In this document: positions 5,347 to 22,377 of the stretch, one piece after another | How positions within the stretch are numbered: the first letter of the stretch is position 1 | How the letters are laid out: each line of letters begins with the position of its first letter | Assembly (NCBI RefSeq): GCF_055900595.2 | Contig: NZ_CM148325.1 | Reading direction: 5' to 3' (one strand) | Length of the DNA: 64,000 nucleotides | Notes under the pieces: model-generated | What the model was told of the DNA's origin: nothing | Database searches by the model: none | Seen by the model: the letters and a program-made list of their open reading frames with translations, nothing else | Position numbers and translations under genes: made by a program

Positions 5347-5544
5347 AGCATTCAAAGCAGAAGGCTTTGGGATTGGATGAATGAGCAGGCTGATGCTCGA
5401 CCAATGTATAAACAGCGCTCATGGCAAGCAGTAACCAATCTGCGCCTCAAGACAGCGTCACTGGTAGTGCGGGCGCTCTAACCAGTAAGCCGGGGTTCAG
5501 CGCCGGCCATCCAATCACCAAAGCTAACTGACAGGAGAATCCAG

Positions 5545-13647: not shown

Positions 13648-14931
13648 GTGAACACATTTTCAGTTTCCCGTCTGGCGCTGGCATTGGCTTTTGGCGTGAC
13701 GCTGACCGCCTGTAGCTCAACACCGCCCGATCAACGTCCTTCTGATCAAACCGCGCCTGGTACCTCTTCTCGCCCGATTCTGTCGGCAAAAGAAGCGCAG
13801 AATTTCGATGCTCAACACTATTTTGCGTCCCTGACGCCAGGTGCTGCAGCGTGGAATCCTTCCCCGATTACTCTGCCTGCGCAACCTGACTTTGTTGTCG
13901 GCCCGGCGGGTACTCCGGGTGTAACGCATACCACGATTCAGGCGGCGGTAGATGCGGCAATTATCAAGCGCACCAACAAGCGCCAGTATATTGCCGTGAT
14001 GCCTGGTGAGTATCAGGGAACGGTGTATGTCCCTGCTGCTCCGGGTGGAATTACTCTGTACGGTACAGGTGAAAAACCGATTGATGTGAAGATTGGGCTT
14101 TCCCTTGATGGGAGCATGAGCCCTGCCGACTGGCGTCACGACGTCAACCCGCGCGGCAAATATATGCCAGGTAAACCAGCGTGGTATATGTACGATAGCT
14201 GCCAGAGCAAACGCAGCGACAGTATCGGCGTTCTGTGTTCTGCGGTCTTCTGGTCACAAAACAACGGCCTGCAACTGCAAAACCTGACCATCGAAAACAC
14301 GCTGGGTGATAGCGTAGATGCGGGTAACCATCCGGCGGTGGCACTGCGTACTGATGGCGACAAAGTGCAGATCAATAACGTCAACATTCTCGGTCGTCAG
14401 AATACATTCTTTGTCACCAACAGTGGTGTGCAAAACCGTCTGGAAACCAACCGTCAGCCGCGTACTCTGGTGACCAACAGTTACATTGAAGGGGATGTGG
14501 ATATCGTTTCTGGTCGCGGCGCAGTGGTGTTCGATAATACCGAATTCCGCGTGGTGAACTCACGTACTCAGCAAGAAGCGTATGTGTTTGCACCGGCTAC
14601 GCTGTCTAACATCTATTACGGTTTCCTCGCCGTAAACAGCCGCTTCAATGCTTCCGGTGATGGCGTGGCGCAACTGGGCCGCTCGCTGGATGTTGATGCC
14701 AATACCAACGGTCAGGTGGTGATCCGTGATAGCGCCATCAACGAAGGTTTTAACACGGCTAAACCGTGGGCCGATGCGGTGATTTCCAATCGCCCGTTTG
14801 CGGGTAATACTGGCAACGTTGATGATAACGACGAAGTACAGCGTAATCTGAATGACACTAACTACAACCGCATGTGGGAATACAATAACCGCGGCGTGGG
14901 TAGCAAAGTGGTTGCAGAGGCGAAGAAGTAA
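13648..14931 (+). CDS. ybhC: Pectinesterase-family lipoprotein YbhC
   Basis: GTG start, lipoprotein signal (LTAC), 427 aa. Confidence 0.9.
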   Translation: MNTFSVSRLALALAFGVTLTACSSTPPDQRPSDQTAPGTSSRPILSAKEAQNFDAQHYFASLTPGAAAWNPSPITLPAQPDFVVGPAGTPGVTHTTIQAAVDAAIIKRTNKRQYIAVMPGEYQGTVYVPAAPGGITLYGTGEKPIDVKIGLSLDGSMSPADWRHDVNPRGKYMPGKPAWYMYDSCQSKRSDSIGVLCSAVFWSQNNGLQLQNLTIENTLGDSVDAGNHPAVALRTDGDKVQINNVNILGRQNTFFVTNSGVQNRLETNRQPRTLVTNSYIEGDVDIVSGRGAVVFDNTEFRVVNSRTQQEAYVFAPATLSNIYYGFLAVNSRFNASGDGVAQLGRSLDVDANTNGQVVIRDSAINEGFNTAKPWADAVISNRPFAGNTGNVDDNDEVQRNLNDTNYNRMWEYNNRGVGSKVVAEAKK

Positions 14932-14946
14932 AAGCGATTAACTTTT

Positions 14947-15150
<204 letters not shown>

Positions 15151-15163
15151 CACATGGCGCTTT

Positions 15164-17425
15164 TTACATCTGACGGTTTTTATTGAAGTTAATCAAACTA
15201 CCCGCCTTGATAATCTCGCGCTCTTCAGCAGTCAGACTTTCCATATAGAGCGTAATCTCTGTTACCGGCGCATCTTCATGGATCACATAACCTTTAAACG
15301 TCGTCCCCGGATTATCCAGCGCCGCTTTAATGCCAGGGATGTAAATGTAATCGCCCACTTCAAAGTTCGGTGCTTCCGCCATCTGCAGCGGTAACATTCC
15401 CCAGTTGATGACGTTAGAACGGTAGCGTTTAGTCGCGTATTCCTCGGCAATATTCGCCAGACCGCCAATCACACGCTGGCAGCTCGCCGCCTGCTCACGC
15501 GCAGAACCATCGCCTGGTTTCACCGCATAGACCATGCTGCCAATTTCAGTTTGCAGCGGATCAATATGCTCCTGACCAGCAATCTGCTTAATGCGCGCAA
15601 ACACCTCTGTCAGCTCGCTGACATTGCCCGCCAGACGCTGATTTTCCAGCTCAGCAGTCGCTTTACTTCTGCCAACATAACCTGGATCGCGGCGTGACAG
15701 GGTAAACTCCGCCAAACCAATCGGATTTGAACGATAAGAAGAGGTTTCACCGGAAGGAATCAGTTCGTCGGTGGTGGTGACTTCGTCGAGGATCTTCGAG
15801 CACACTTTGAGGACGATATTGTCAGTCAGCGCCCCCAATTCCGGCCAGTCTTTAATGTTCGGTCCGTAAATCAGCGGTTGCTGGGTCGCCCCTTTCACAA
15901 AGCCCTGATAAACACGGTTTTTATACGGCGTTACATCGAAGGCGTACTCCGGCACGTTGTCCCAGCAATCGAGTTCGCTGGCAGAGGTTAAATAGCCTCC
16001 GTTTGCCGCAGTCGCAGCAATAGAACGGGCGTCCATCAACGCCACCGCTGACATCTGACCATTAGCTGGCTTAGAGCCTTCGCGGTTCGGGAAGTTACGC
16101 GTGGTGTGGCGAATACTCAAACCGTTGTTGATTGGCGTATCACCCGCACCGAAGCATGGGCCGCAGAACGCGGTTCTGATGATTGCGCCTGCGCCAATCA
16201 AATCTGCTACCATGCCTTTTTTGGCTAAATCCATAAACACCGACTGTGATGACGGATAAACCGCCAGCGAGAAGGTGTCATTGCCACAGGATTGACCGCG
16301 CAGCGCATTCGCCGCCGCGATGACGTTTTCGTAGTTACCGCCAGAACAGCCCGCGATAATCCCCTGCTGCACTTTCAGGCGACCATTTTCCACTTTATCC
16401 AGCAGCGAGAGTTTGGCTTTACCGTGCGCCACGCGCTCGGACTCAATTTCAATCTCACGCAGAATGTCAGTCAGGTTCTGGTTCAGCATGTCGATTTCAT
16501 ACACGTTGCTCGGGTGGAACGGCAGCGCAATCATTGGTTTGATGGCGCTTAAATCAACGCTGATGCAGCCATCGTAGTACGCCATCGGTTGAGGGTTAAG
16601 CTGGCAGTAATCCTGGCCGCGACCGTGCAGCGCCAGCCAGTTATGGACTTCTTCATCAGTTTGCCAGACAGAACTTAAACAGGTAGTTTCAGTGGTCATC
16701 ACGTCAACGCTGTTACGGAAATCGGTAGAGAGCGCCGCAACACCGGGACCCACGAACTCCATCACTTTGTTTTTGACGTAGCCGTTTTTGAACACGGCAC
16801 CGATGATAGCCAGCGCCACATCCTGCGGCCCCACATACGGCGCAGGTTTTCCGGTCAAATGCACCGCAACAACTCCCGGATAGTCGATATCCCAGGTGTC
16901 ATTAAGCAGCTGTTTTACCAACTCACCGCCACCCTCACCGACTGCCATTGTCCCTAATGCACCGTAACGGGTGTGGCTGTCTGACCCGAGGATCATTTTG
17001 CCGCCGCCTGCCATCATCTCACGCATATATTGATGGATGACCGCAATATGTGGAGGCACAAAAATACCGCCATAACGCTGCGCTGCCGATAAACCAAAAA
17101 CATGGTCATCACCGTTAATGGTGCCGCCGACGGCGCAGAGTGAGTTATGGCAGTTGGTCAGCACATACGGCAGCGGGAAACGTTCCATACCGGACGCTTT
17201 AGCGGTCTGTACAATACCAACAAAGGTAATATCGTGAGAGGCTAATGAATCAAACTTAATTTTAAGTTTATCCATATTTCCGGACGTATTATGAGAAGAG
17301 AGAATAGACCAGGCAATAGTGCCTTTTTTTGCTTCTTCTTTTTTAATTTCGCCGGTGAAATGTTCTTCGGCAATTATTTCGTTATTACTGGCGAGAAACA
17401 CGCCTTTTTCAGATAACTTGATCAT
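15164..17425 (-). CDS. ybhJ: Aconitase-family hydratase YbhJ
   Basis: 753 aa from MIKLSEKG; aconitase-family size and composition. Confidence 0.85.
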
Positions 17426-17480
17426 CAAATGCTCCAGATATCTGCGCACCGTTAAGTACGCAGAAAGATAATAAATGGAT

Positions 17481-17605
17481 ATACTCTAAATAATTCGAGT
17501 TGCAGGAAGGCGGCAAGCGAGTGAATCCCCAGGAGCTTACATAAGTAAGTGACTGGGGTGAGCGAACGCAGACGCAGCACATGCAACTTGAAGTATGACG
17601 AGTAT
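17481..17605. repeat. ERIC (intergenic repeat unit) element
   Basis: Imperfect palindrome ATACTCTAAATAATTCGAGTTGCAGGAAGGCGGCAAGCGAGTGAATCCCCAGGAGCTTACATAAGTAAGTGACTGGGGTGAGCG... Confidence 0.7.
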
Positions 17606-17607
17606 AT

Positions 17608-19041
17608 TTACAGCATGTTCCAGCCGATCAGCATATTCCACCACCACACGCCGAGGGTGATATGTACCAGGAAGGTTAATATCGTCAGTACCGCACCGAC
17701 TAACCACCAGGATTTAATATCGTTATAGCCTACGCCGAAGATGACCGGACCTGCCGCACCGCCATAGTGAGTAACCATGCCGCCATAGGAGTTGGAGAAA
17801 AGCAGCGCCAGCGCAGTTAACATTAACGGTGCGCCGGAGACGTTCGCCAGCATGGCAAATACCGGTAACATGGCAACGATATAGGCACTACCGGAAGCAA
17901 AGAAATAACGCACGATGATGCTAAGGAAAATAATAACGAAGAAAGCTACGTTACCATGACCGTCAAATGCCAGGTTATTTTTAAAGACTTCAGCTAACCA
18001 TTCGAAGAATTTAACTTTCGATAATAAGGAGCTTAAGCCGATAATACCGCCGTACCAGATTAAGGTATTCCAGCCGCCTTTATTTTTCACCACGTCTTCC
18101 CAGGTAACGATCCCCAGCAGCAGCATGGTCGCCATAACAACGATTGCCACAGTGGATTCATCTACCCCGAGCGTTTTACTGAAAATCCAGCCCAACAGCG
18201 CCAGCACAAAGACACCGAGCAGCATTTTTTCGCGGATTTTCATCGGCCCCAGTTCAGCAAGGCCCGCTTTGGCGATAGTTTTGTTATCCACTTTCTTAAT
18301 TTCTGGCGGATACATGGTGTAAATCACCAGCGGAGTGACCAGCAGCATAATGATGCCCGGTAAACCAGCGGCCAGTGCCCATCCACCCCAGCTAATTTGC
18401 AGGTGCAGAATGTCGTTGATCATTTTCAGCGCCAGAATGTTCCCCGCCATTGCGGTAAAGAACATATAGCTGGTGGTTTTGGTGACCATGTAAATGGACA
18501 TCATCAGGTAATGTCCGACACGACGCGGGCTTTTTTCAGGTTCTGACCCCAAAGCCACCGCCACGCTGTTGATGATCGGTAACACAATGCCGCCCGCACG
18601 CGCGGTGTTAGACGGTGTTGCCGGAGCCAGTACCAGATCGAGGAATACCGTAACGTAACCCAGCCCCAGCGTGGTGTTACCGATTTTACCAATCAGCAGA
18701 TAGGCTATACGTTTGCCTAAGCCGGTGGTCACAAATGCGGCGCTTAAGGTAAACGCCGAGAACACCAGCCAGGTGGTACCTGAAGAGTAACCGCTTAATA
18801 CGGCGGTAGTCTTAAATGCACCAGCGGATAAATTACCGACCACCACCATTGAGGCAGCAACGGCAATTAACAGTACGACAGGTTCCGGGAAAGGCTTGAT
18901 AACCAGCCCGACGATTGCTGCCAGGTAAATACCAAAAAGCACCCACGCCAGTTCGCTTAATCCTGCCGGAGCTGGCATAAAGCCAATAATACATGGGATC
19001 GCTAATATCAGAATTAGCTTCCATAACGATTTTTTATTCAT
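17608..19041 (-). CDS. ybhI: DASS-family anion:sodium symporter YbhI
   Basis: 477 aa, polytopic membrane protein. Confidence 0.85.
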   Translation of the reverse strand: MNKKSLWKLILILAIPCIIGFMPAPAGLSELAWVLFGIYLAAIVGLVIKPFPEPVVLLIAVAASMVVVGNLSAGAFKTTAVLSGYSSGTTWLVFSAFTLSAAFVTTGLGKRIAYLLIGKIGNTTLGLGYVTVFLDLVLAPATPSNTARAGGIVLPIINSVAVALGSEPEKSPRRVGHYLMMSIYMVTKTTSYMFFTAMAGNILALKMINDILHLQISWGGWALAAGLPGIIMLLVTPLVIYTMYPPEIKKVDNKTIAKAGLAELGPMKIREKMLLGVFVLALLGWIFSKTLGVDESTVAIVVMATMLLLGIVTWEDVVKNKGGWNTLIWYGGIIGLSSLLSKVKFFEWLAEVFKNNLAFDGHGNVAFFVIIFLSIIVRYFFASGSAYIVAMLPVFAMLANVSGAPLMLTALALLFSNSYGGMVTHYGGAAGPVIFGVGYNDIKSWWLVGAVLTILTFLVHITLGVWWWNMLIGWNML

Positions 19042-19115
19042 TTAAAATCCTGTTCTTTCTGTATGACTTATACAGAAGTCCTTTGTTAATTGCCCTTATC
19101 ACGACAACGACCTTT

Positions 19116-20168
19116 TCAGGGAAGATAAACTTCACCGGAAAATATTTTTCTGGTCGTCCGAATAACAGATGCGCGTAAGGTTGTGGCATCCTGACCTTCA
19201 TTGCTTAAATGAACGTCGAGCGCACCACTGGGATGTTCAATATTGATATTGCCATATCCTACAGAAGGGACGATTTGTCGGGTGACGGTGCCTTCCAATG
19301 CACAACTACTGGAAATGGCAATAGCACCGGTTATCGCCAGCGCACGATGGCAGGAGTGCGGCATAAAATAACGCACATTAATTGCCCCGCCTTTCTGTGC
19401 TGGAGAAATAAGCACAGGCTTAGGGATAACCATATTACTGACATCACCTAAGCCCATTGCTTTACCCGCTTGTAGGCGGATAGATTCAATGCGGGCTAAT
19501 AATGTTTTGTCGGCATCCAGTTCCGCCGGTAATTCATAGCCTGTTTTACCCAAATAATCAGCCGGAATAATGACGACTGGCATCGCCATATCGATACAAG
19601 TCACTGGAACATCGTCAAAATAATCGATCTGATTATCAGTCGGGAAAACTTTTCCGGTTTTGGTTCCAGCGGCATTCAGGAAAGTGAGCGCAACCGGTGC
19701 GGCAGTACCCGGTACGCCGTCAATTCTGGTGCTACCCTCGTACTCGACAACACCATTTGGCGTTTGCACATCAGCTTCGATGAACGTACCCGTATTGACG
19801 TTGCGGATACGTACGCGGGTAACTGGCGAAGTCGCTGCAATCAAACCATTTTCAATGGCGAATGCCCCAACGCCAGACAGCATATTGCCGCAGTTAGGTG
19901 TAGTGTCGACACGTTGCTCATGGACGATAACCTGAGCAAACAGATAATCGACGTCAGCACGCGGATCGCTGGAACGGCTAATTATGGCGACTTTACTGGT
20001 CAGCGGATTACCGCCGCCAATACCGTCAATTTCCAGATCGTTACCGGAACCCATAATTGCCATCAATATTTTATCGCGCTGCGTTTGATCTTCGGGTAGA
20101 TGTTCCGCTAACAGGAACGCGCCCCTCGAGGTTCCACCTCGCATCATCACGCAGGGTATTTTTTTCAT
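19116..20168 (-). CDS. ybhH: PrpF-family isomerase YbhH
   Basis: 350 aa, PrpF/AcnD-accessory fold signature. Confidence 0.85.
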   Translation of the reverse strand: MKKIPCVMMRGGTSRGAFLLAEHLPEDQTQRDKILMAIMGSGNDLEIDGIGGGNPLTSKVAIISRSSDPRADVDYLFAQVIVHEQRVDTTPNCGNMLSGVGAFAIENGLIAATSPVTRVRIRNVNTGTFIEADVQTPNGVVEYEGSTRIDGVPGTAAPVALTFLNAAGTKTGKVFPTDNQIDYFDDVPVTCIDMAMPVVIIPADYLGKTGYELPAELDADKTLLARIESIRLQAGKAMGLGDVSNMVIPKPVLISPAQKGGAINVRYFMPHSCHRALAITGAIAISSSCALEGTVTRQIVPSVGYGNINIEHPSGALDVHLSNEGQDATTLRASVIRTTRKIFSGEVYLP

Positions 20169-20351
20169 AATAATGCCCTCAATTTAAAAACATAACTTAT
20201 TGCGATATGGTTACATTAAGGGCAAAGCATCTCTAATGACTTTAGCTCAACGATTAATAACATTTTTTCATTAATTTAAGTTGGCTAAATGCAGTTAAAA
20301 TTTTTAACGGCCTGTCATCCAAAATCGTCGCATCCATTTTTCGGAGTAATA

Positions 20352-21305
20352 ATGAAGCATGAATTATCAAGTATGAAGGCATTTGTCATACTGGCAGAGT
20401 CCAGTTCATTTAACAATGCTGCTAAATTACTCAATATTACGCAACCTGCATTAACGCGAAGAATAAAAAAGATGGAAGAGGATTTACATATTCAACTATT
20501 TGAGCGTACAACTCGCAAGGTTACGTTAACAAAAGCAGGAAAAAGGTTGCTCCCGGAGGCACGGGAATTAATAAAGAAATTCGATGAAACGCTTTTTAAT
20601 ATTCGTGATATGAATGCTTATCATCGTGGTATGGTGACGTTAGCGTGTATTCCGACCGCAGTATTTTATTTTTTACCACTGGCAATCGGTAAATTTAATG
20701 AGCTGTATCCCAATATTAAAGTGCGGATTCTGGAACAAGGCACGAATAATTGCATGGAATCGGTGCTGTGTAACGAATCAGACTTTGGCATAAACATGAA
20801 CAACGTCACAAATTCATCCATTGATTTTACCCCACTGGTCAACGAGCCGTTTGTGCTGGCCTGTCGGCGTGACCACCCATTAGCCAAAAAGCAGCTTGTA
20901 GAATGGCAGGAGTTAGTAGGTTACAAAATGATTGGCGTACGCTCCTCCCGCGGCAACCGACTGCTGATAGAACAGCAACTGGCCGACAAGCCCTGGAAGC
21001 TGGATTGGTTTTACGAAGTGCGTCATCTTTCGACGTCGTTAGGACTGGTAGAGGCGGGACTGGGGATTTCAGCGCTTCCTGGTCTTGCAATGCCCCATGC
21101 GCCCTATTCTTCCATTATTGGTATCCCGCTGGTGGAACCCGTTATACGTCGGACATTGGGGATTATTCGCCGCAAAGATGCCGTACTTTCTCCGGCTGCA
21201 GAACGCTTTTTTGCCTTGCTGATTAATTTATGGACCGACGATAAAGACAACTTGTGGACCAATATCGTCGAACGCCAGAGACATGCGTTACAGGAGATAG
21301 GTTAA
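20352..21305 (+). CDS. ybhD: LysR-family regulator YbhD
   Basis: N-terminal HTH; divergent from ybhH. Confidence 0.8.
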   Translation: MKHELSSMKAFVILAESSSFNNAAKLLNITQPALTRRIKKMEEDLHIQLFERTTRKVTLTKAGKRLLPEARELIKKFDETLFNIRDMNAYHRGMVTLACIPTAVFYFLPLAIGKFNELYPNIKVRILEQGTNNCMESVLCNESDFGINMNNVTNSSIDFTPLVNEPFVLACRRDHPLAKKQLVEWQELVGYKMIGVRSSRGNRLLIEQQLADKPWKLDWFYEVRHLSTSLGLVEAGLGISALPGLAMPHAPYSSIIGIPLVEPVIRRTLGIIRRKDAVLSPAAERFFALLINLWTDDKDNLWTNIVERQRHALQEIG

Positions 21306-21345
21306 TACTCCGGCGCAGGAGAGACTGCGCCGGGTGAATCAGCGG

Positions 21346-22377
<1,032 letters not shown>

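Follow-up and report, generated by a model that had tools for sequence, protein, structure and literature searches.

The stretch analyzed here, called the window throughout, comprises 64,000 nucleotides of NCBI RefSeq assembly GCF_055900595.2 (contig NZ_CM148325.1), and our subject is its four-gene locus ybhJ-ybhI-ybhH-ybhD at positions 15,164 to 21,305. Gene order around the locus is that of the Escherichia coli chromosome: bioA-ybhB-ybhC, ybhJ-ybhI-ybhH, the divergent ybhD, and pgl-ybhA-modCBA. A first-pass annotation had described ybhJ, ybhI, and ybhH as co-oriented and divergently paired with the LysR-type regulator gene ybhD, and had read the combination of an aconitase-like hydratase, a PrpF-type isomerase, and a carboxylate transporter as a catabolic route for an unsaturated di- or tricarboxylate. 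The layout is borne out by the open reading frames (ORFs), the RefSeq coordinates, and the Pfam families of the products, and comprises the following features, with the flanking repeat array given last.

15164-17425, minus strand: ybhJ, 753 aa, single-chain mitochondrial-type aconitase-family [4Fe-4S] hydro-lyase; proposed cis-aconitate hydratase
17479-17607: dispersed repeat resembling the enterobacterial repetitive intergenic consensus (ERIC), with 26-nt terminal inverted repeats, within the ybhI-ybhJ spacer (17426-17607)
17608-19041, minus strand: ybhI, 477 aa, DASS-family carboxylate carrier; proposed tricarboxylate/dicarboxylate exchanger
19116-20168, minus strand: ybhH, 350 aa, PrpF-family allylic isomerase; proposed aconitate isomerase (trans to cis)
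20169-20351: divergent ybhH/ybhD control region, a 183-bp AT-rich spacer
20253-20275: candidate YbhD operator ATTAAT-N11-ATTAAT, proposed from motif uniqueness and conservation
20352-21305, plus strand: ybhD, 317 aa, LysR-type regulator and apparent ybhH repressor
14932-15163: array of repetitive extragenic palindromes/bacterial interspersed mosaic elements (REP/BIME), directly past the ybhJ stop codon, with repeated palindromic units in the sequence

The corresponding ORFs span 15164-17449, 17608-19041, and 19116-20168 on the minus strand and 20289-21305 on the plus strand, and the RefSeq gene coordinates were carried over from the annotation of a 99.9% identical genome. Two genes have alternative in-frame starts farther upstream, a GTG at 17449 for ybhJ (761 aa, the length annotated in Klebsiella) and an ATG at 20289 for ybhD (338 aa). 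We favor the RefSeq starts at 17425 (ybhJ) and 20352 (ybhD) because each has a GGAG motif 6-7 nt upstream. In Pfam, YbhJ matched Aconitase (8e-88, 295.8 bits) and Aconitase_C (28.4 bits), both over the cut-off, YbhI matched Na_sulph_symp (DASS, PF00939; 4e-194) over its full length, YbhH matched PrpF (PF04303; 2e-167) over residues 1-350, and YbhD matched HTH_1 and LysR_substrate.

Of 5426 complete E. coli genomes, 5233 cover at least 80% of the 6.6-kb ybh region and 5371-5381 contain segments of ybhJ; overall, the cluster occurs in ~99%. Ratios of nonsynonymous to synonymous substitution rates (dN/dS) against Citrobacter were 0.03-0.09 across ybhD, ybhH, ybhI, and ybhJ (0.04 for ybhJ), with dS saturated. 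Based on this near-universal presence and these low ratios, the four are real genes maintained by strong purifying selection. Decay of ybhJ within E. coli was considered in view of in-frame deletion forms of 634 and 648 aa and rejected, the deleted segment being present in 5371 of the 5426 genomes. Among rare ybhJ alleles (P0036, P0029, P0001) is a 634-aa form that has lost residues 421-536, including two of the Fe-S cysteines; further rare forms are of 648 aa, without residues 483-581, and of 835 aa, with an internal duplication. Identity of at least 99% to window positions 14900-21500 was found in 14 of 5464 E. coli records, nearly all the rest lying at 95-99%, which places the origin of the window in a minority lineage of E. 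coli. Strain RMDEC465 (NZ_CM177019.1) has a group II intron ltrA gene annotated inside its ybhJ-ybhI region, which is ~2.4 kb longer.

A crystal structure of YbhH has been deposited (6OTV, "putative isomerase YbhH"), and the solved relatives that follow its own entry are LigU ((4E)-oxalomesaconate delta-isomerase, 1e-92), methylitaconate isomerase, and PrpF; a literature search on 6OTV and 6P3H found no relevant paper. Residues K59 and C93 align with the LigU positions mutated in entries 6P3H (Lys to Met) and 6P3K (Cys to Ser), and we take them as the catalytic pair because those entries mark catalytic residues. RefSeq names YbhH "4-oxalomesaconate tautomerase" because it exceeds the cut-off of the NCBIfam model NF033377. 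Identity to LigU, which stands for the LigU/GalD group in our own comparison (identities to TarA, TbrA, and GalD being those reported in PMC11495376), is only 45%, against 61-69% to a clade from Pseudomonas, Dickeya, Azotobacter, Klebsiella, and Providencia. The RefSeq name is therefore doubtful, and is probably a wrong over-extension, a point that goes beyond the first-pass annotation.

Members of this clade recur in a characteristic setting. In Dickeya, Pseudomonas, and Azotobacter, the ybhH-like gene (62-64% identity) is in every case paired divergently with a LysR gene encoding a protein of 52-59% identity to YbhD, and is followed downstream by carboxylate transporter genes of a family that differs by genus: SDF and CitMHS with an OprD porin in Pseudomonas, an MFS carrier and an FAA-hydrolase-family gene and then citCDEFX in Dickeya, and CitMHS and OprD adjoining tcuAB-like genes in Azotobacter. 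Genes for gallate/protocatechuate 4,5-cleavage (ring-cleavage dioxygenase, LigJ/GalB hydratase, LigK/GalC aldolase) were sought at the E. coli, Klebsiella, Providencia, Dickeya, Pseudomonas, and Azotobacter loci, and none was found. Since a regulator, an isomerase, and an importer make up such loci alone, the product of the isomerase would already be a central metabolite. Judged by these contexts, YbhD and YbhH are the conserved core of the predicted module.

Published assays bear on what this clade isomerizes. Four proteins, AI-7-1, AI-16-1, AI-32-1, and AI-41-1, have 88-101% of the forward aconitate isomerase activity of TarA from Bacillus velezensis, PrpF-type paralogs assayed from the same strains have 2-4%, and AI-32-1 and AI-41-1 favor the forward reaction ~tenfold relative to TarA (PMC11495376, activities in its Tables S2 and S4). 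The forward primer of AI-32-1, from Pseudomonas protegens, is an exact match to codons 2-7 of the Pseudomonas ybhH-like gene (P0357), the product of which is 63% identical to YbhH, and the translated primers of all four constructs (start QRIPCV, end RLAG) fit the termini of Pseudomonas YbhH-like proteins. We infer from the primers that the four are members of the YbhH clade.

YbhJ has the length and the four-domain single chain of pig mitochondrial aconitase (mAcn), with ~20% identity. Its cysteines C360, C421, and C424, invariant across the family alignment, align with the mAcn cluster ligands C358, C421, and C424, and the equivalents of H101, H147, D165-S166-H167, E262, R447, R452, S642, and R644 are kept. 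Four of these (YbhJ S641, R443, R448, and R643) align directly with mAcn S642, R447, R452, and R644 and are invariant in alignment A2, as is R565, which lies 12 residues past the TTD motif and is placed like the residue that we take to be R580 in mAcn numbering. YbhJ scored 1536 bits against NCBIfam NF008503. Across 65 homologs, 335 positions show conservation of at least 97%, and YbhJ departs from these at only nine, each time conservatively. An AlphaFold model of moderate quality (nine sequences, pLDDT 71) was used for overall fold only, not for residue geometry, and Foldseek aligned it best with mitochondrial aconitase, along the full length (TM 0.6, E 6e-34).

Species-representative genomes hold at least 599 relatives of YbhJ, and gene context was surveyed at the best 80 of these loci. 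The ybhD/H/I/J arrangement among them is confined to E. albertii and Citrobacter, and the other 78 are from gut anaerobes, with proteins 64-72% identical to E. coli YbhJ; the hosts are Lachnospiraceae (Enterocloster, Blautia, Hungatella, Butyrivibrio), Collinsella, Megasphaera, Acidaminococcus, Ellagibacter, and Erysipelotrichaceae. By its relatives YbhJ is thus placed in a gut-anaerobe lineage, which the first-pass annotation had not proposed. Setting aside Collinsella-type synteny and the Enterobacteria left 48 loci, and at 22 of these the YbhJ homolog (65-72% identity) is no more than three ORFs from citrate synthase (NF010635, 592 bits), isocitrate dehydrogenase (IDH)-like, or citrate lyase genes (citD/E/F/C/XG). 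The commonest order is YbhJ-like, citrate synthase, IDH-like. This is the classical 2-oxoglutarate branch, and the clade therefore very probably supplies aconitase activity at these loci, which suggests that many Lachnospiraceae, Negativicutes, and Coriobacteriia use YbhJ-type proteins as their functional aconitase.

Some more distant relatives were also encountered. Two proteins 37-39% identical to YbhJ, P0148 (L006 8001-10966) and P0155 (L007 1175-4287), were tried as outgroups and excluded, having lost the Cys ligands and standing in unrelated contexts. They have neither the Fe-S cysteines nor the DSH motif, are followed by Macro-domain and FGGY kinase genes, and may be a degenerate, noncatalytic offshoot of the family. 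Three Firmicute clusters (L005 199-10202, L034 8300-14267, and L018 4741-12500) encode, beside a LysR regulator, a 650-aa aconitase, a second YbhJ subclade (40-48% identity), a PrpF protein (37-40% identical to YbhH), an RraA/LigK-like aldolase or oxaloacetate decarboxylase, and an Iso_dh-family dehydrogenase of 390-407 aa; together these look like an uncharacterized pathway for tricarboxylates in anaerobes, separate from the E. coli module. BLAST also reported a likeness between YbhJ residues 91-100 (window ~17126-17155) and the catalytic-Cys loop of the PrpF clade, NCGN(I/M)LCAVG, at 80% over 10 residues. It is probably due to chance; the Cys there replaces the Asp of the aconitase dyad.

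The carrier and its relatives connect the module with citrate. Across all 477 aa, YbhI shares 33% identity with CitT, the citrate:succinate antiporter, and the only solved relatives found for it were two dicarboxylate translocators of chloroplasts, DiT1 and DiT2.1, and a single bacterial DASS protein, which we take to be the exchanger LaINDY. By sequence it resembles the exchanger-type DASS carriers (CitT, TtdT, plant DiT). In Providencia rustigianii, a citA-like kinase gene is followed by citCDEFXG, a ybhI-like gene (65%), and a ybhH-like gene, with the carrier in the citT slot. Serratia fonticola has citEFXG followed in turn by genes for a hydrolase, an AcnB-type aconitase, and a YbhI-like carrier (65%). 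The Klebsiella aerogenes module (L098/L099, 7683-8945 and 11356-20286) consists of LysR and then PrpF, DASS, an extra 420-aa CitMHS carrier, and YbhJ genes, with a second LysR gene past ybhJ. It lies between ispH-rihC and citBA-oadBAG-citS, not at the bio-pgl site occupied in E. coli, and so adjoins a citrate fermentation island (citB-citA, oadBAG, citS). The context of the Snodgrassella relative of YbhI held nothing informative. Going by gene order, the links of module parts to citrate metabolism are independent in six lineages: Dickeya, Providencia, Serratia, Klebsiella, Azotobacter (through the tcuAB-like genes), and the Firmicutes.

Regulation by YbhD has been studied experimentally. Deletion of ybhD raised ybhH mRNA strongly in RNA-seq, ChIP-exo located YbhD at ybhH/ybhI, and the deletion strain had a growth phenotype on glycerol plus L-malate (PMC9068703). 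On this basis YbhD is apparently a repressor of ybhH. The motif ATTAAT-N11-ATTAAT at 20253-20275 is the sole match in the 64-kb window, where 0.2 would be expected by chance. It is kept in E. albertii, has one mismatch in Citrobacter, and recurs with identical spacing in the orthologous Dickeya spacer; conserved blocks of the ybhH/ybhD spacer are likewise found in E. albertii and Citrobacter. We propose the motif as a candidate YbhD operator. A consensus promoter/terminator scan of the ybhH/ybhD control region returned nothing above chance.

The general scheme in which a tricarboxylate is imported, isomerized, and hydrated is very likely, and the first-pass reading of unsaturated tricarboxylate catabolism is upheld to that extent. 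Comparative context and the matched Pseudomonas aconitate isomerase constructs sharpen it, pointing to aconitate isomers that feed citrate metabolism. Our preferred reading, to which we assign a probability of roughly one half, is that ybhDHIJ encodes YbhD-repressed uptake of trans-aconitate, its isomerization to cis-aconitate, and hydration to citrate or isocitrate. YbhI would bring in trans-aconitate (possibly cis-aconitate or citrate) in exchange for a dicarboxylate such as succinate or malate, YbhH would convert trans- to cis-aconitate by the Lys/Cys allylic isomerase chemistry of the PrpF family, and YbhJ, as an Fe-S aconitase, would hydrate cis-aconitate to citrate or isocitrate. Citrate lyase would be the citrate sink in the anaerobic gut, with the exported dicarboxylate serving as counter-substrate, and YbhD would hold the operon off until the substrate, presumably its ligand, is present. 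Support comes from tarR-tarAB, where trans-aconitate assimilation takes no more than a LysR regulator, a PrpF isomerase, and an importer (PMC11495376), and from reported trans-aconitate-assimilating isolates of Enterobacter, Citrobacter, and Providencia (PMC13188880).

Several observations weigh against assigning trans-aconitate to the E. coli module. As the first-pass annotation had held, the substrate is not established in print: literature searches on ybhH, ybhI, ybhJ, and ybhD, by themselves and together with aconitate or aconitase, turned up no assigned substrate for the E. coli genes, no experiment tying ybhDHIJ to aconitate, and no published assay of E. coli YbhH. YbhH scored 514.2 bits against NF033377, the 4-oxalomesaconate tautomerase model with a cut-off of 440. 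YbhJ differs from mAcn at D100 (Cys92), Q72 (His), N258 (Val), and S643 (Ala), and of the Asp-His dyad characteristic of EC 4.2.1.3 it keeps the His and has the Asp replaced, within an invariant NCHN motif; its AlphaFold model is weak in the active-site loops and segments. These variants may nevertheless suit aconitase chemistry, because they are also found in homologs beside citrate synthase and IDH-like genes. Neighbors were uninformative at about half of the Firmicute loci and at all Collinsella loci (30 of 80), which share heat-shock gene synteny only. E. coli has two known aconitases, AcnA and AcnB. In 2002, Blank et al. are said to have found the residual aconitase activity of an acnAB mutant unchanged by deletion of ybhJ. 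A ybhJ mutant was sensitive to H2O2 and low in NADPH, and YbhJ was called catalytically inactive (PMC4054840). Repression by YbhD could explain both findings of inactivity, and because YbhJ fits the conserved core of its family (nine deviations in 335 positions), the earlier view of an inactive protein may reflect such repression. The only enterobacterial YbhH-like protein assayed, AI-79 from Providencia rettgeri, had <1% activity (PMC11495376), a result that is ambiguous because its primer starts at RGGTSK and ~9 N-terminal residues are probably missing. The ybhD phenotype is L-malate-linked, and trans-aconitate was outside the compounds tested (PMC9068703).

The last of these observations belongs to the proposal of Rodionova et al. 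that the module serves L-malate or another C4-dicarboxylate (PMC9068703), and the best solved relatives of YbhI, being 2-oxoglutarate/malate translocators, agree with it. An allylic isomerase and an aconitase-type hydratase would, however, have no place in a malate route, the contexts of the relatives center on citrate rather than malate, and the growth phenotype is explained equally well by de-repressed YbhI using malate as counter-substrate, which is the role that a dicarboxylate would have in the trans-aconitate scheme; we give this alternative very little weight. It is possible, although we think it unlikely, that the substrate is another tricarboxylate, such as an oxalomesaconate/2-keto-4-carboxyhexenedioate type compound from aromatic ring cleavage by gut microbes, methyl- or homo-aconitate, or hydroxycitrate, with YbhJ hydrating or dehydrating it and YbhH shifting the double bond by AcnD/PrpF-like or LigU/LigJ-like logic. 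The NF033377 score fits this, as do LigU being the closest characterized solved relative, the several noncanonical active-site residues of YbhJ, the resemblance on chemical grounds of 4-carboxy-4-hydroxy-2-oxoadipate to citrate, and the Firmicute clusters (L005, L018, L034, and L071) that join YbhJ-like, PrpF, and RraA/LigK-like aldolase genes. The PrpF proteins of those clusters are, however, just 37-40% identical to YbhH, which is nearer in sequence to the clade with the matched active aconitate isomerases than it is to LigU. Nor is there a partner dioxygenase, hydratase, or aldolase gene near ybhH or its 61-69% identical relatives in the six genera, scores for the AcnD and PrpF equivalogs fall far under the cut-offs, and prpBC is not nearby.

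The same enzymes could also run backward, with YbhJ dehydrating citrate, YbhH making trans-aconitate, and YbhI exporting it, a design that would resemble the Bacillus thuringiensis nematicide operon tbrAB. Aconitate isomerases catalyze both directions, and which one prevails is considered to depend on the transporter (PMC11495376), DASS exchangers are able to run both ways, and trans-aconitate-producing isolates of Enterobacter, Citrobacter, Providencia, and Serratia have been reported (PMC13188880). Reverse flux is nevertheless improbable given the catabolic settings of the relatives (citrate lyase operons, OprD-type porins, tcuAB-like genes of the tricarballylate-utilization type), the forward bias of AI-32-1 and AI-41-1 already noted, and control by a LysR repressor relieved by substrate, which is typical of catabolic operons. 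The view that YbhJ is a catalytically inactive aconitase paralog acting in regulation or oxidative stress, and that the genes do not form a single pathway, could appeal to the H2O2 sensitivity, low NADPH, and "inactive" label of PMC4054840, to the ERIC element between ybhI and ybhJ, and to the existence of truly degenerate YbhJ-like proteins (P0148 and P0155). YbhJ retains all the Fe-S ligands and catalytic residues, unlike those degenerate forms, its dN/dS is 0.04, it fits the conserved core of homologs in citrate synthase/IDH-like operons, and the ybhJ genes of Citrobacter and Klebsiella are tightly linked with no ERIC element, all of which makes a dead enzyme hardly credible.

Returning to trans-aconitate uptake and conversion, the module looks chimeric in its composition, with a CitT-like exchanger and an aconitase of gut-anaerobe lineage joined to a proteobacterial LysR-isomerase core. 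Taken together, and held only tentatively, these parts would let E. coli ferment plant trans-aconitate via citrate lyase in the gut, with YbhJ as a conditional third aconitase that comes from a strict gut-anaerobe lineage, carries the NCHN Cys, and was in that case probably gained by horizontal transfer. The need for YbhJ may arise from inhibition of the housekeeping aconitases by trans-aconitate, or from their scarcity under anaerobic conditions. trans-Aconitate is abundant in grasses, cereals, and sugar cane, and if the proposal holds it would be a gut nutrient for Enterobacteriaceae tied to citrate-lyase fermentation. Four E. coli y-genes found in ~99% of strains would then have functions, YbhJ, once dismissed as inactive, would be a real third E. 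coli aconitase, and the product name "4-oxalomesaconate tautomerase", which has spread to thousands of genomes, would be corrected. The YbhJ-type aconitase of gut anaerobes also bears on metabolic reconstruction of the gut microbiota.

The repeats in and beside the locus were also compared. The ERIC-like repeat of the ybhI-ybhJ spacer has a median of 11 copies per E. coli genome and is missing in Citrobacter, where the spacer is 71 bp; the E. albertii spacer, at ~185 bp, has the size seen in E. coli. No minus-strand terminator-like site was found in the ybhI-ybhJ spacer, and the repeat may alter the stability or expression of ybhJ mRNA relative to ybhHI. The REP/BIME repeats past ybhJ account for the many extra places matched by BLAST in each E. 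coli genome. The sole match in an Rfam scan, outside the genes, was to the REP-derived naRNA4, a nucleoid-associated noncoding RNA, at 15000-15070 on the minus strand (71.9 bits), within the REP/BIME array.

Among known systems, the AcnD-PrpF pair of the Shewanella oneidensis 2-methylcitrate cycle likewise has an aconitase-family gene beside a PrpF-family gene, and PrpF there corrects double-bond geometry for the hydratase (PMC5690661). The E. coli module differs in having a transporter gene and in its neighbors, which are bio genes, ybhB, ybhC, pgl, ybhA, and mod genes, with prpB/prpC not nearby. YbhJ scores 64 bits against AcnD (TIGR02333, cut-off 1420) and YbhH 186 against PrpF (TIGR02334, cut-off 441), and YbhJ is of the mitochondrial-type 753-aa form, whereas AcnD is AcnA-like. 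YbhH shares the Lys/Cys catalytic pair with LigU/GalD (PDB 6P3H, 6P3J, 6P3K), the LigU substrate also being a tricarboxylate. Three Cys ligands, a Ser base, the His residues, and four Arg are common to YbhJ and mAcn (PDB 5ACN and others); unlike E. coli AcnA and AcnB, the YbhJ lineage is one of gut Firmicutes and Coriobacteriia. With E. coli citCDEFXG-citT the module has in common an exchanger-type DASS carrier and enzymes feeding oxaloacetate-based fermentation, but it has no lyase, would act upstream in making citrate, and has a LysR regulator instead of the CitAB (DpiBA) two-component system. The tartrate system ttdR-ttdAB-ttdT couples a DASS antiporter with an Fe-S hydro-lyase and is served by a LysR regulator.

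The comparison with tarR-tarAB of B. velezensis FZB42 (PMC11495376) takes in the whole arrangement, since both systems have a divergent LysR gene, a PrpF-family isomerase, and a dedicated importer, and in both the isomerase product would enter central metabolism directly. Enterobacterial TarA homologs at 37-40% identity were listed by BLAST in that study, and YbhH is ~39% identical to TarA. The differences lie in the carrier (DASS-family YbhI rather than MFS-family TarB), in the extra dedicated aconitase YbhJ, and in control, YbhD behaving as a repressor (PMC9068703) and TarR being an activator, with a candidate ATTAAT-N11-ATTAAT operator in place of three TTATAA motifs. Because the carrier is of the DASS family and YbhD apparently represses, ybh is a variant of the Tar type and not a member of it. 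On present evidence ybhDHIJ is best described as a putative Tar-type trans-aconitate module with another carrier family, an added aconitase, and repressor control.

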